Positions 1,534 to 6,904 of a stretch of DNA of 24,000 nucleotides are shown piece by piece (position 1 is the first letter of the stretch; each line of letters opens with the position of its first letter). The notes under the pieces are model-generated. The model saw only the letters and a program-made list of their open reading frames with translations, did not search any database and was not told where the DNA came from. The DNA is from Pseudomonas sp. NPDC086278 (GTDB lineage Bacteria > Pseudomonadota > Gammaproteobacteria > Pseudomonadales > Pseudomonadaceae). The translations under genes and the position numbers were made by a program. The stretch covers positions 99,593-123,592 of the forward strand of contig NZ_JBNNWE010000002.1 in NCBI RefSeq assembly GCF_050280905.1, in the 5' to 3' direction.

Positions 1534-2097
1534 TCAACGGATGAAGTGAATCTTGCCGGTGTCGTCGTTGCCAATGTAAATGCCGTAGACCCCGGCCAGG
1601 CGTTCCTCGATGTAGCGCTCGAGGATCTGCCGGATGGCTGGGTAGTAGATGCTGTCCCAGGGAATGTCCTCGGGCGCGAAGAATTTGTAGTCCAGGGTTT
1701 CCGGTCCGTACTGACCGGTGATTTCCAACGCTATGGCGCGGAAAATGATGTACACCTCGCTGATCTTCGGCACGCTGAAAATCGAGTAGGGCGAGAGAAT
1801 TTCCGCGCGAACGCCGCTTTCTTCCCAGACTTCGCGAAGCGCGGCCTGCTCGGTGGTCTCGCCAGCTTCCATGAAGCCGGCGGGCAGCGTCCAGGTGCCA
1901 GGGCGCGGCGGAATCGCACGCTGGCACAGCAGGTATTTACCGTCCTGCTCAATGATGCAGCCGGCGATGATTTTCGGATTGACGTAGTGGGTATAGCCGC
2001 AACCGCGGCACATCAGGCGCTCGTGCGTATCGCCCGGTGGCAACTGCGACCTGAGGTCGTTGCTGCCGCACTTTGGACAAAAGCTCGGGCTGAACAT
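1534..2097 (-). CDS. NUDIX hydrolase with N-terminal CxxC...CxxC zinc ribbon
   Basis: 187-aa ORF with a complete Nudix box, [23 protein letters not shown] (GX5EX7REUXEEXGU). The N-terminus has CPKCGS...CRGCGY. The start codon lies 2 nt after the GntR stop codon. Confidence 0.9.
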
Positions 2098-2099
2098 GA

Positions 2100-2852
2100 T
2101 TAGCGACCTATGCGCGGTTCTTTAAGCGGGATCGGCAGGATGATCGACGGTATCACGCCCGTTTCTTCCTGTTTGCGCTTGAGGTAGTCAAGAGCCACTG
2201 CCGCAGCAGAGCGAACGTGATCGACGCACGCCTGGTGAGCGACCAGCGGGTCACCACTTTTGATCGCCTCAACCATGCGCTCCATTTCCTGATTGCTGGC
2301 GCCGCGACGGTTTTCCTGGGACACCGACGTCGCACGCAGGTAGCTGATGCGTGCCTGCAACTGGCGCAATTGCGTAGCGGCCACGTGGTTGCCGGAGCCT
2401 TCGAGCAGGACGTCGTAGAAGCCCTGAACGGAGTCGATGACCTGTTGCAGTTCGCCATCCTTAAGGGCCTTGCGGTTTTCCTCAAGGGCTTTTTCCAGGG
2501 CTTTGATGTCTTTGGCCTTGGCCCGCAGAGTGAACAACTGCACGATCAGCCCTTCAAGCACGCAGCGCAGTTCATAGATGTCGACGGCATCTGCCAACGT
2601 AATAATGGCGACCCGTGGGCCCTTGGCGTCGGCGAACTCCACCAGGCCTTCGGACTCGAGGTGACGCAAGGCTTCACGCACGGACGTGCGGCTGACACCG
2701 AGGCGATCGCACAGATCGCGTTCGACCAGTCGGTCGCCCGGTAAAAGCTGGAAGTTCATAATGGCGCTTCGCAGTTTTTCCAGCACGATTTCGCGCAGGG
2801 TAACGGGATTGCGATTGACCTTGAAGCTGTCGTCGAGTGGCAGGCGTTTCAT
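2100..2852 (-). CDS. GntR-family transcriptional regulator, FadR subfamily (wHTH plus FCD-type C-terminal domain)
   Basis: 250-aa ORF with an N-terminal wHTH ([35 protein letters not shown]). The all-helical C-terminal region is typical of FCD effector domains. Confidence 0.9.
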
Positions 2853-2882
2853 GGGGTCCGCTCTGAATGTGGCTGTCCATGC

Positions 2883-3959: not shown

Positions 3960-5441
3960 TTAGCGCATCACGAAAGGATCAGGCATTGGAGCCTGAGAGA
4001 GGTTGATCCACACCGTTTTGAGTTCGGTGTAGGCCAGCACCGAATCGATGCCGCTCTCACGTCCATAGCCGCTGTTCTTGAAACCGCCAATCGGCGCCAT
4101 CGCCGATACGGCGCGGTAGGTATTGACCCAGATAATGCCCGAGCGTACGTCGCGGGCCAGTCGATGGGCGCGCCCGAGATCGCGAGTCCAGATACCGGCA
4201 GCCAGACCGAACTGAGAGTCGTTGGCGATTGCCAGTGCTTCGGCTTCATCCTTGAAACGTATGACTGAGGCCACAGGACCGAACACTTCTTCCTGCATGA
4301 TCTTCATCGAGTTGCTGTCGCACTCGAACAATGTCGGCTCGTAGAACCAGCCTTCACCCAAATTCTGTGGGCGCTTGCCGCCCATGCGCAGACGCGCACC
4401 TTCGGCGATGGCATCGGCGACCAGACCTTCGACCACGGCCAGTTGCTGCGCGGTAGCCATCGGCCCCATCTCGCTGCTGTCTTCCTGGGGGTTGCCGATG
4501 CGGATGCGCTTGGCGCGCTCGACCAGACGCTCGACGAATTCATCGTAGATTTCGTCTTGGACCAGCAGGCGCGAACCAGAGACGCAACTTTGCCCGGAAG
4601 CCGCATAGATCCCGGCAATAGCACCGTTGATGGCGCTGTCGAGGTCAGCGTCGGAAAAAATGATATTGGGCGATTTGCCACCCAGTTCCAGCGACAACTT
4701 GGCGAAATTTTCAGCGCTGCTGCGCACCACATGGCGCGCCGTTGCTGCACCGCCGGTGAAGGCGATTTTGCGCACCAGTGGATGGCGGGTGAGGGCAGCG
4801 CCAGTGCTTGGGCCGTAACCGGTGACGACGTTGACAACACCCGGTGGAATACCCGCTTCCAGCGCCAGGCGCGCCAGCTCGAGAATAGTCGCCGAGGCAT
4901 GTTCCGACGGTTTGATCACAATGGTATTGCCTGCCGCCAAGGCCGGGGCCAGTTTTATCGCGGTCAGGTAAAGCGGGCTGTTCCATGGAATGATCGCCGC
5001 GACCACGCCCATGGCTTCGTGCACCGTGTAGGCAAACAGGTCGGGCTTGTCCAGCGGCAAGGTGCCGCCTTCAAGCTTGTCCGCGAGGCCCGCGGTGTAG
5101 TGGAAGAACTCGGGAAGATAGTTGACCTGGCCACGGGTTTCGCGGATCAGCTTGCCGTTGTCGCGGCTTTCCAGCTGTGCCAGTTGCTCTTTGTTTTCTG
5201 CGATTAGATCGCCCAGGCGTCGCAGTAATTTGCCCCGTGCGGTGGCGGTCAATCCGCGCCAGGCCGGGCTATCGAACGCGGTCTGCGCAGCATTGACCGC
5301 GCGCTCGACGTCCGCTTCGTCGGCATCGGGCAGCTCAGCCCAAGGTTCGGCCAAGGCAGGATTCAGGCTTTGGAAGGTCTTGCCGCAGAGGGCATCGACC
5401 CATTCACCGCCGATGCACATCTGGAAGCGTGCGAGTGTCAT
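3960..5441 (-). CDS. NAD(P)-dependent aldehyde dehydrogenase
   Basis: 493-aa ORF with the catalytic Glu motif ELGGKSP, the catalytic Cys motif GQSCVSGSR and the cofactor motif FTGG. Its start overlaps the stop of the upstream hydrolase by 4 nt (ATGA). Confidence 0.95.
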   Translation of the reverse strand: MTLARFQMCIGGEWVDALCGKTFQSLNPALAEPWAELPDADEADVERAVNAAQTAFDSPAWRGLTATARGKLLRRLGDLIAENKEQLAQLESRDNGKLIRETRGQVNYLPEFFHYTAGLADKLEGGTLPLDKPDLFAYTVHEAMGVVAAIIPWNSPLYLTAIKLAPALAAGNTIVIKPSEHASATILELARLALEAGIPPGVVNVVTGYGPSTGAALTRHPLVRKIAFTGGAATARHVVRSSAENFAKLSLELGGKSPNIIFSDADLDSAINGAIAGIYAASGQSCVSGSRLLVQDEIYDEFVERLVERAKRIRIGNPQEDSSEMGPMATAQQLAVVEGLVADAIAEGARLRMGGKRPQNLGEGWFYEPTLFECDSNSMKIMQEEVFGPVASVIRFKDEAEALAIANDSQFGLAAGIWTRDLGRAHRLARDVRSGIIWVNTYRAVSAMAPIGGFKNSGYGRESGIDSVLAYTELKTVWINLSQAPMPDPFVMR

Positions 5442-6271
5442 GCAACGATCCCCTTGATCTGGTTTTGTTCGGAGTACGCGTTGTCGAGAAACGCCAGGAG
5501 CATCTGGTTCACCAGTCGCGGCGATTCTACCGGCATCATATGCCGCTGCTCGGCGAGCACCGCAACGGTGGCGCCGGGAATTCGTTCGGCTAACTGCATG
5601 GCCATTTGCGGTGTTGAACCCGGGTCCAGCTCACCTGTGGCGATCAGCGTTGGCACGTGAATGCAACCCAGGTCATCAGCGCGGTACATGTCCTGGGTCG
5701 CGAACAGCTCATAGGTGGTCAAGTAACCCTGCGGGTCATTGTTGGCCAAGGTTTGGCGCAAGGCCGCGATCTGTGCAGGGTTGGCTGCCTGGTATTCACG
5801 ACTGAACCAACGCGACAGCGCCGCTTCGGCATTGGCGTCTGGCCCATGCTCCGCTGCCTGACTGGTGCGAGCGATCACACCGGCTCGCTGCTCGGGGCTG
5901 CGATTGAACACGCTGTTGAGCACCACCAGGCCCCGCAGGCGCTCCGGGTAATGCAAAGCAAATGCCCGTGCAACAAGCCCGCCCATGGAAAAACCGATCA
6001 CCGTCGCCTGAGGCAGTTGCAGGTGGTCGAGTAGCTCCCGCAGTTGATCGGCATAGCCGAGCAACGGGGTTCCGCTTTCCGGAAGTGGACTGGCTCCGTG
6101 GCCGAGCATGTCATAGGCAATCACCCGATATTGCGAAGACAGGCCAACGACTTGCCCGCCCCACATTTCTTTGTTCAGGCCCACGCCGTGGATCAGGACC
6201 ACGGGTTGGCCTTGGCCGGTCGCTATATAACTGGTGCCAGCCTGGGTGTGTTCAGCGGTGAGCCGAATCAT
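5438..6271 (-). CDS. Alpha/beta hydrolase (3-oxoadipate enol-lactonase/PcaD-like or RutD-like)
   Basis: 277-aa ORF with the nucleophile elbow GFSMGG and an HG oxyanion motif (VLIHGVG). SD AGGAG lies 6 nt upstream of the ATG. Confidence 0.9.
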   Translation of the reverse strand: MIRLTAEHTQAGTSYIATGQGQPVVLIHGVGLNKEMWGGQVVGLSSQYRVIAYDMLGHGASPLPESGTPLLGYADQLRELLDHLQLPQATVIGFSMGGLVARAFALHYPERLRGLVVLNSVFNRSPEQRAGVIARTSQAAEHGPDANAEAALSRWFSREYQAANPAQIAALRQTLANNDPQGYLTTYELFATQDMYRADDLGCIHVPTLIATGELDPGSTPQMAMQLAERIPGATVAVLAEQRHMMPVESPRLVNQMLLAFLDNAYSEQNQIKGIVA

Positions 6272-6313
6272 GGAACGCTCCTGCAGCTTTTTTTGTCGCT
6301 GCTCTCAGCGGAA

Positions 6314-6904
6314 TCACTGGGCCTTTTCGGCAGCCAGTTCTTCCAGATCGATGTAACGATTGCCAATGCGCGGGTGCAGTCGGCCGCCGTCGGCACAGCC
6401 CAGCACCACGACAATTTCGTCGGCGCGCGGTGCATCTTCGATCTTCATTTCCAGGGTGATGTAGTGCGAGCGCAGACCTTCATCGTCCTTGTGCATCATT
6501 GGAATCTGAATGGATGTGCCCGGGCCGCCGCGCTTGTTGGTGAAGCTCAGGTAGCTCTTGGCTTTCACCGCTTCGCGGTAATGATTGCCGAAACGCAAGG
6601 TATGGATGACCGCAGAGGCATGTTCGATTTCACCGTCGGCGCCCACTACGGCGGCTTTGCCGTAAGCCTCGATTTTTTCGGCGCCGCCGATGATCCCGAC
6701 CAGACGCTCAACCATCAGCGCGCCGAGGTCCGAGCAATTGGCGCGGATTTGCGGCTTCAGGTCTTCAACAAAACCATTCCCCAGCCATGGGTTTTTCATC
6801 ACGACGGCCAGACCGACCATGGTCACCGGGGTATCGGTGGCCTTGCCGCCTTCTATAAAGGTTTCTTCGACGTAGCTGACGATCTTGCGGATTTCGAAAC
6901 TCAT
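6314..6904 (-). CDS. Amino acid synthesis family protein (AA_synth / DUF1185), function unknown
   Basis: 196-aa ORF. It is the first gene of the minus-strand string. The translation (MSFEIRKIV.YVEET..EGGK......) resembles the PF06684-type family as I recall it. Confidence 0.8.
   Translation of the reverse strand: MSFEIRKIVSYVEETFIEGGKATDTPVTMVGLAVVMKNPWLGNGFVEDLKPQIRANCSDLGALMVERLVGIIGGAEKIEAYGKAAVVGADGEIEHASAVIHTLRFGNHYREAVKAKSYLSFTNKRGGPGTSIQIPMMHKDDEGLRSHYITLEMKIEDAPRADEIVVVLGCADGGRLHPRIGNRYIDLEELAAEKAQ

Follow-up and report, generated by a model that had tools for sequence, protein, structure and literature searches.

Which oxygenase does a flavin reductase serve when none is encoded beside it? 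The question is raised by a string of seven genes in Pseudomonas sp. NPDC086278, which we analyzed within a stretch of 24,000 nt (the window; positions are numbered along it). The encoded proteins match those recorded for this strain (WP_427629667 and its neighbours). The first gene of the string encodes a protein of the DUF1185 (AA_synth) family, the fourth a flavin reductase. A first-pass annotation had read the string as an undescribed pathway whose oxygenase is missing or replaced, with the DUF1185 protein as candidate catalyst. The comparisons reported here point to a different answer: the locus is probably the principal operon of the tgn system for the degradation of trigonelline (N-methylnicotinate) in its Pseudomonas form, and the finding is largely explained as a variant of an already described system. 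In the following, clusters of Pseudomonas, Vibrio and Novosphingobium are denoted type II, those of Acinetobacter and rhizobia type I.

Organization of the seven-gene string

According to the list of open reading frames and Pfam, all seven genes are intact and located on the minus strand at the positions previously assigned, and the Pfam scores of their products are far above the cut-offs. The operon starts with the DUF1185/AA_synth gene (6314-6904; PF06684, 233.7 bits), whose product is TgnF-like. It is followed by genes for a TgnD-like alpha/beta-fold hydrolase (5438-6271; Abhydrolase_1, 105 bits), whose translation contains a GFSMGG nucleophile motif, a TgnC-like NAD(P)-dependent aldehyde dehydrogenase (ALDH; 3960-5441; Aldedh, 577 bits), and a TgnA-like flavin reductase of 161 aa (3462-3947; Flavin_Reduct, 144 bits). 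The remaining genes encode a PcaC-like protein of the CMD family (2927-3331; PF02627, 81 bits), which is a variable accessory member, a TgnR-like GntR/FCD transcription factor (2100-2852; GntR and FCD domains), and a NUDIX hydrolase with an N-terminal zinc ribbon (1534-2097; NUDIX and Zn_ribbon_Nudix). The CMD reading frame spans 2927-3400, with the ATG at 3331 as the likely true start. With this start the intergenic gaps are 42, -4, 12, 130, 74 and 2 nt, which reproduces the first-pass annotation exactly. The 130-nt gap between the reductase and CMD genes is occupied by an inverted doublet resembling repetitive extragenic palindromic (REP) elements, with 25-nt arms at 3351-3375 and 3421-3445, as had likewise been noted.

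The arrangement is not a product of chance. A scan with an alignment of DUF1185 proteins, in which each species was represented by a single genome, resulted in 80 Pseudomonas-type loci, and the four-gene core of AA_synth, hydrolase, ALDH and reductase is present in all 80. The GntR and NUDIX genes come next in 78 loci, the other two break off earlier, and the CMD gene is found in 61 and absent from 19. In 22 of the 80 loci a second ALDH gene is located between the reductase and CMD genes. It encodes a TgnE-like succinate-semialdehyde dehydrogenase (SSADH; TIGR01780, 732 bits versus a cut-off of 646); the window lacks such a gene and carries the REP doublet in its place. The core also recurs in Vibrio and Novosphingobium, and a luciferase-like monooxygenase (LLM) is encoded nearby in other taxa. 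In keeping with the first-pass annotation, the string follows the logic of oxidative heterocycle cleavage, combining a reductase, a hydrolase and semialdehyde handling, and it makes up a catabolic unit that is conserved.

Correspondence with the trigonelline cluster

One published functional link of DUF1185 is known: TgnF of Acinetobacter baylyi, a DUF1185 homologue, stimulates the succinate-semialdehyde dehydrogenase TgnE in trigonelline degradation (PMC7913881). TgnA and TgnB are described in the literature as a two-component oxygenase that opens the ring, TgnB being the LLM. In searches of plasmid collections, loci of Acinetobacter, Rhizobium and Sinorhizobium show the order AA_synth, hydrolase, reductase (about 310 aa), LLM, ALDH, importer and SSADH; one such cluster is located on pSymA of S. 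meliloti at 430.6 kb, and the cluster of A. baumannii additionally holds GntR, DUF1330 and CMD genes. The LLM and 310-aa reductase of the A. baumannii type are named components of a 'flavin-dependent trigonelline monooxygenase' by NCBI, and IMG labels several type II LLMs as trigonelline oxygenase component. As Perchat et al. reportedly found for A. baylyi ADP1 in 2018 (PNAS), ring opening by TgnAB yields a hydroxybutyrolactone, which is oxidized by TgnC, a member of the ALDH family. Hydrolysis by TgnD is said to break the product down into succinate semialdehyde, formate, methylamine and CO2, and TgnE, with the help of TgnF, to convert the semialdehyde into succinate.

The string corresponds to this cluster gene for gene. 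TgnF is matched by the DUF1185 protein (54-57% identity to those of the Acinetobacter clusters, while other DUF1185 proteins reach at most about 40%), TgnC by the ALDH (52-54%), and TgnD by the hydrolase (35-37%, and 33-36% to the rhizobial counterpart), whose gene is syntenic with the one in Acinetobacter. TgnA is matched by the flavin reductase, in a shorter architecture (161 aa versus 310 aa) and with 35-37% identity to the N-terminal part of the longer protein. The window ALDH is only 37% identical to the SSADH of the Acinetobacter cluster, hence its pairing with the cluster ALDH is reciprocal, as are the pairings of the window proteins with the Acinetobacter cluster proteins in general. 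The CMD protein is 74% identical to the one of A. baumannii, whose gene adjoins the SSADH gene, and the SSADH found in relatives is 71% identical to that of the A. baumannii cluster. Between Pseudomonas and Acinetobacter, identities amount to 44-50% for the LLM and 58-59% for the NCS1 importer; the ABC importer is about 60% identical to the rhizobial one. This homology, together with the trigonelline names that NCBI assigns to the homologues, contradicts the view of an undescribed pathway: orthologous clusters are, in essence, already assigned to a characterised one, tgn.

Physiological data are consistent with trigonelline as the probable substrate. Isolates of the P. syringae group utilize it as sole carbon source without exception (PMC10890144), and S. 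meliloti without pSymA does not grow on it (PMC4207669). A literature search for random barcode transposon sequencing (RB-TnSeq) or KT2440 data on trigonelline turned up nothing usable. In the PDB, sequence searches retrieved only DUF1185 structures that are uncharacterised (2qtp, 3byq) along with LLMs and esterases of a generic kind; none of the entries bears a Tgn name.

Several points weigh against the assignment. Identities are moderate (35-37% for hydrolase and reductase, 44-48% for the LLM, 52-54% for the ALDH, 54-57% for DUF1185) and the reductase architecture differs (161 aa versus 310 aa), so that the substrate could differ as well. The Acinetobacter proteins compared are proxies, taken from congeneric loci with NCBI trigonelline names in place of the A. 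baylyi ADP1 proteins. For the strain considered here the case is built on sequence comparisons, and the presence of an LLM in it lies outside what the window can show. Finally, the 58 loci that lack an SSADH in the cluster have kept DUF1185, there too the best-conserved protein, which fits poorly with a mere helper of that enzyme.

The same enzymology, from ring opening by the LLM through the ALDH and hydrolase steps to succinate semialdehyde, might be directed at a different N-alkylpyridinium or N-heterocyclic carboxylate (an N-methylnicotinamide-like compound or a related betaine, for instance), in which case true utilization of trigonelline by Pseudomonas would depend on something else. Type II DUF1185 proteins are at least 75% identical between Pseudomonas, Vibrio and Novosphingobium versus 54-60% to type I, the hydrolase and reductase are just about 35% identical to those of Acinetobacter, and none of the type I loci examined yielded the additional conserved NUDIX and RibB(A) genes that are seen in type II; a trigonelline name in the style of KEGG Orthology (KO) is attached to only some type II LLMs. 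Type II is thus set apart from type I in sequence and architecture, and a shifted substrate range is conceivable. The importers, however, are more similar (NCS1 58-59%, ABC about 60%) than several of the enzymes, the operator is identical in both types, both have the SSADH end step, and the Vibrio transporter is a betaine-type BCCT. Moreover, pseudomonads that bear type II use trigonelline (PMC10890144), and among the Pseudomonas matches seen there is no type I cluster. We therefore regard a different substrate as unlikely.

A shared operator links separate units

The assignment to a tgn-type system is also consistent with a common operator sequence. The palindrome ATGGTATACCAT (12 bp, 6942-6953) is located 38 nt upstream of the AA_synth gene and contains an exact match to the core TGGTATACCA at 6943-6952. 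The first-pass annotation had proposed one candidate operator at the 5' end of the string; this operator is real, but a second exact copy of TGGTATACCA is found at 1197-1206, within the 70-nt spacer of the divergent RibBA and DUF1330 genes. Allowing at most one mismatch, the window contains three matches, versus 0.17 expected by chance. In every one of the 80 Pseudomonas loci the core precedes AA_synth without mismatch, embedded in a near-invariant block, TATTATGGTATACCATCA, which itself follows a conserved CTTGC. An exact core is likewise located ahead of the AA_synth genes of Vibrio, Novosphingobium, R. etli and two clusters of Acinetobacter. The RibBA/DUF1330 spacer has the exact motif in 59 of 61 loci and one mismatch in the other two. 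The form expected ahead of a gene for a TgnB-like LLM is (T/C)GGTATACCA, and in distant LLM modules the spacers between NCS1 and reductase-LLM genes carry TGGTATACCA, CGGTATACCA or TGGTATTCCA. Each of the units is thereby preceded by the operator or by a variant with one mismatch.

The operator fits the TNGTNNACNA type of sites bound by the GntR/FadR family, and the GntR/FCD protein is presumed to be the repressor that acts at the TGGTATACCA operators. This protein is 38-43% identical to the GntR proteins encoded beside the Acinetobacter and Rhizobium clusters, and one member of its 90% cluster is annotated as 'trigonelline degradation regulator'. A GntR regulator and, by sequence, the shared operator of the tgn cluster are therefore both present. 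As the operator is found twice in the window, the DUF1330 gene and the RibBX-type gene (the RibBA gene of the spacer) would join the regulon. A strict sigma-70 scan detected no promoter; a presumed promoter, suggested by conservation (CTTGCGC, 16 nt, TACCAT), overlaps the operator upstream of AA_synth.

Location of the oxygenase

The flavin reductase requires a two-component oxygenase of which the window holds no trace, as previously observed: tblastn with the LLM of relatives and Pfam scans of the remaining reading frames agree that no luciferase-like, HpaB-type or other oxygenase, and hence no counterpart of TgnB, is encoded in the 24 kb. Among relatives the LLM gene is found at four kinds of position. 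In 8 of the 80 loci (P. putida group, Metapseudomonas) an LLM of 346 aa and a second flavin reductase, 67-74% identical to the window reductase, are encoded directly upstream of AA_synth, beside an NCS1 permease gene. In strain ABY48, the RibBA gene, four genes of an ABC transporter, the reductase gene and the LLM gene follow one another without interruption. In P. atacamensis the NCS1/reductase-LLM module is located on the same contig, about 23-35 kb from the AA_synth locus, and strain rhizo66 and P. donghuensis harbor a free-standing module, with NCS1 divergent from reductase-LLM, elsewhere in the genome. A search with the Pseudomonas LLM returned clusters at 90% identity, each with about 1000 members, which span P. 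koreensis, P. atacamensis, P. brassicacearum, P. frederiksbergensis, P. viridiflava, P. syringae pv. actinidiae and others, and at the AA_synth loci examined of P. atacamensis, P. brassicacearum and P. viridiflava no LLM gene is adjacent. In Vibrio and Novosphingobium only one reductase gene is seen in the neighbourhood of the cluster, and the LLM gene has no reductase gene beside it.

Judged from these relatives, the supposition of an oxygenase that is missing, or that DUF1185 replaces, does not hold; the TgnB-like LLM is encoded in a separate unit that shares the operator. The orphan-like appearance of the reductase probably results from a split regulon together with the boundary of the window. 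As the left end of the window is only 53 nt beyond RibBA, the location of the oxygenase gene in this strain cannot be seen from it, and the sequence breaks off before the region where ABY48 has its LLM gene. An arrangement in which reductase and LLM always follow the ABC transporter was considered and ruled out: P. baltica has a terminator-like hairpin at this position, so that the order of ABY48 is not universal. Short sequence tails of P. gingeri past the transporter contain no start of a reductase gene.

The lack of an LLM gene within 24 kb also suits a decayed system, in which the LLM module was lost from this strain and the operon is idle or scavenges downstream intermediates of its neighbours. 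The position of the LLM gene is highly variable among species, so that the module appears to be mobile and could be lost, and the SSADH gene has already been replaced by the REP doublet. All the genes are nevertheless intact and, both operators included, share 87-99% identity with their counterparts in the closest relatives, and the large LLM clusters comprise many species of the P. fluorescens group without an LLM gene next to AA_synth. The window, moreover, halts short of the ABY48-type position. We consider loss of the module very unlikely.

The interpretation of the first-pass annotation, an undescribed pathway that has no oxygenase and relies on DUF1185 as the missing catalyst, or alternatively a branch similar to the Rut or beta-ketoadipate pathways, draws on DUF1185 itself, which lacks established chemistry and is better conserved than any other protein of the cluster. 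In addition, the CMD protein is barely below the PcaC cut-off, and the best named matches of the hydrolase are PcaD and RutD. Against this, the cluster comes with an LLM in all distant lineages examined, and an LLM is found in other Pseudomonas under the same operator. The matches to RutD, RutF and PcaD are far below the equivalog cut-offs (see below). In P. syringae GR12-2, a true rut operon exists as a separate neighbour. The neighbourhood analysis largely refutes this interpretation, which we consider scarcely credible.

A number of side observations concern the LLM and its surroundings. Homologues of the type II LLM in Streptomyces, Nocardia, Mycolicibacterium and Kineococcus are 75-79% identical to the Pseudomonas protein, unusually high for a comparison between Proteobacteria and Actinobacteria. 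On P. fluorescens-type contigs (loci L096, L097 and L099, 1-9812; L091, 3851-5797) the NCS1/reductase/LLM module adjoins genes for FolD and for a heterotetrameric oxidase resembling SoxBDAG, which may be a dehydrogenase of N-methylglutamate or of an N-methyl amine; the reductase and LLM genes are separated there by an inserted gene for a dCache_1 chemoreceptor. In P. syringae GR12-2 (L068, 5125-8709) and strain CFII64 (L070), Rut-type genes encoding a RutA-like LLM, an isochorismatase, an alpha/beta hydrolase and a flavin reductase immediately precede the AA_synth operon, which makes neighbours of two heterocycle pathways that rely on an LLM.

Accessory genes and distribution of type II clusters

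Two accessory genes are found at the left edge of the window. The first encodes a DUF1330 protein (1234-1530, plus strand; PF07045, 122 bits), the second a RibBX-type paralogue of 3,4-dihydroxy-2-butanone 4-phosphate (DHBP) synthase (54-1163, minus strand; DHBP_synthase and GTP_cyclohydro2 domains; PRK12485, 803 bits), whose GTP-cyclohydrolase-II-like domain lacks the zinc cysteines, as read from the translation. Left of the NUDIX gene, DUF1330 is present in 62 of the 80 Pseudomonas loci and a RibBA-type gene in 61. Where the sequence reaches far enough, genes for an ABC importer come after RibBA; this is so in 56 loci, among them that of the closest relative, Pseudomonas sp. GM49. The DUF1330 gene adjoins the LLM gene in Vibrio and Novosphingobium, and the GntR gene in A. 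baumannii.

The gene content is similar in other type II clusters. In Vibrio japonicus, a unit of GntR, DUF1330, LLM and BCCT is divergent from AA_synth, hydrolase, ALDH, reductase, SSADH, CMD, NUDIX and a plain RibB. Novosphingobium terrae has a Vibrio-like set of genes, but with an NCS1 permease and RibBA. Between Pseudomonas and these two genera, DUF1185 proteins are 76-79% identical and cluster enzymes 51-69%; the window hydrolase is 51-56% identical to its Vibrio and Novosphingobium counterparts, and the NUDIX protein of the Vibrio cluster 51% to that of the window. Contigs labelled Gordonia sp. IEGM753 (97%) and Pantoea sp. Ap-967 (91%) hold the Pseudomonas-type cluster with Pseudomonas synteny; these assemblies are probably mislabelled or contaminated.

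The RibBX gene appears to be a riboflavin-synthesis paralogue under the control of a catabolic GntR operator rather than of a flavin mononucleotide (FMN) riboswitch: an Rfam scan of positions 1-8500 gave no matches, hence no FMN riboswitch ahead of RibBA. RibBX and NUDIX may serve the supply of flavin, and the CMD protein may accelerate a decarboxylation, or act as the decarboxylase, of a formylsuccinate-type hydrolysis product.

These accessory genes also allow a stronger departure from tgn, in which type II is a distinct, undescribed variant with cofactor logistics of its own and a catalytic DUF1185, instead of a simple tgn orthologue, and in which the substrate is perhaps another pyridinium metabolite. 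GntR could then switch on RibBX, and perhaps NUDIX as a pyrophosphatase of flavin adenine dinucleotide (FAD) or other dinucleotides, to raise FMN for a two-component oxygenase that uses free flavin, and DUF1185 could handle, for example, an enamine/imine or aldehyde intermediate. No protein of the cluster is more conserved than DUF1185, which heads the operon even where the cluster has no SSADH and could therefore be a real catalyst and not a helper. We consider such a variant possible, although rather improbable, and retain the assignment to a type II version of tgn.

Side observations on the remaining parts of the window are as follows. The DUF1330 gene (plus strand) and the NUDIX gene (minus strand) converge at 1530-1534 with their stop codons 3 nt apart, which leaves no space for terminators. 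In the type I cluster of R. etli (L085, 14904-15227) a NIPSNAP-family gene follows the ALDH gene, whereas the clusters of Pseudomonas, Vibrio, Novosphingobium and A. baumannii have DUF1330 elsewhere in the cluster instead of NIPSNAP. Both are families of small alpha+beta barrels, and the two genes may have equivalent accessory roles. The stretch of about 1.5 kb between AA_synth and a GGDEF/EAL gene contains an apparent remnant of a histidine-kinase ATPase domain (7092-7295, plus strand; MIMNALEAMG...VLVSGSDAGG) and a 79-aa reading frame without assigned family (7405-7644, minus strand); in one relative (L030) the AA_synth and GGDEF/EAL genes are just about 220 nt apart. Apart from the GGDEF/EAL protein, the remaining genes of the window encode TrmK, LysE, MFS and ABC transporters, a LysR regulator and DUF1214/1254 proteins.

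Proposed mechanism

In the proposed type II tgn system, the TgnR-like GntR protein would repress at least three promoters by binding to ATGGTATACCAT operators until it is released by the substrate or an intermediate. On induction, the substrate would be taken up by ABC and/or NCS1 importers, or by a BCCT in Vibrio. The 161-aa reductase would pass reduced FMN to a TgnB-like LLM encoded elsewhere, which would open the pyridinium ring, and the ALDH would oxidize the ring-opened lactol or aldehyde. The alpha/beta hydrolase is predicted to act on an intermediate of the N-methylformamido-methylene-succinate type, whereby formate, methylamine and CO2 would be freed and succinate semialdehyde left. 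With no SSADH gene in the window, the latter would have to be oxidized by an SSADH encoded elsewhere, presumably a housekeeping enzyme, assisted by the DUF1185 protein. The Pseudomonas LLM would belong to a separate unit of the regulon, with a second copy of the reductase and an NCS1 or ABC importer, and CMD, DUF1330, NUDIX and RibBX would constitute conserved accessory members. Homology, conserved gene context, the common operator and the LLM of relatives are what the sequences show; the substrate, the order of reactions, the pairing of repressor and operator, and the accessory roles we infer.

Implications

Trigonelline is a common osmolyte of plants and algae and a component of root exudates, and growth on it as carbon source is a classical test in the diagnosis of pseudomonads. 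To our knowledge, its genetics have been worked out in Acinetobacter only. The assignment provides a likely function for genes of hypothetical or generic annotation that are found in all 80 Pseudomonas species loci retrieved. The system is divided into two or three units linked by an operator, and views limited to a single window or operon thus show an orphan flavin reductase. A paralogue of the riboflavin pathway and a NUDIX gene inside a catabolic regulon are an oddity. The analysis raises the questions of the real role of DUF1185, of the reason for placing RibBX and NUDIX under a catabolic operator, and of whether types I and II have a common substrate.

Comparison with known systems

The Rut pathway of E. 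coli (RutA-G) also opens an N-heterocycle by means of an LLM and a flavin reductase, and involves an alpha/beta hydrolase and the handling of a semialdehyde. An assignment to Rut was rejected: the NCBIfam scores are 88.5 versus a cut-off of 238.5 for RutD and 61.9 versus 254.75 for RutF, and the window contains no genes for RutA, RutB, RutC, RutE or RutG. With the beta-ketoadipate pathway, the locus has the CMD and alpha/beta-hydrolase families in common. An assignment to Pca was rejected likewise: PcaD scores 168.4 versus 255.85 and PcaC (TIGR02425) 153.8 versus 155.7, and pcaB, pcaHG and pcaIJF are absent from the window. The hydrolase, below both cut-offs, is neither PcaD nor RutD. The CMD and hydrolase genes of the window are not adjacent, and the CMD gene is dispensable. 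The similarity to PcaC/PcaD and Rut to which the first-pass annotation had drawn attention is therefore one of protein families only, as every score is below its equivalog cut-off.

The homarine operon homABCDER (PMC13236597) is dedicated to the degradation of another N-methylpyridinium carboxylate. It likewise includes ALDH-like and hydrolase/peptidase-like steps, and in marine Gammaproteobacteria it has a BCCT importer and an associated cluster for a sarcosine-oxidase-like enzyme and FolD (PMC13236597). However, HomA and HomB are an FAD-binding protein and a protein of unclear function instead of Flavin_Reduct and LLM proteins, and the products are N-methylglutamate and glutamate instead of succinate semialdehyde; on the basis of these descriptions in the paper, by which alone the systems were compared, identity with hom was set aside (PMC13236597).

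With the tgn cluster of the A. baylyi type (tgnABCDEF, plus R and P), the locus and its relatives have in common the families of flavin reductase, LLM, ALDH, alpha/beta hydrolase, SSADH, DUF1185 and GntR, the operator core TGGTATACCA, and homologous NCS1 and ABC importers; CMD and DUF1330 genes also occur in A. baumannii. The trigonelline (trc) region of rhizobial pSym is grouped with the tgn cluster of Acinetobacter. The window differs from tgn in that TgnB and TgnE are both absent and that enzyme identities are only 35-57%. Further differences concern the type II system as a whole. The gene order of Pseudomonas is F-D-C-A(-E)-CMD-R-NUDIX, as compared to F-D-A-B-C in tgn. In type II, the 161-aa reductase and the LLM are never encoded in one operon, and the LLM of Pseudomonas has a duplicate reductase of its own, often at a distant site. 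NUDIX and RibB(A) are conserved members of type II in addition to those of tgn.

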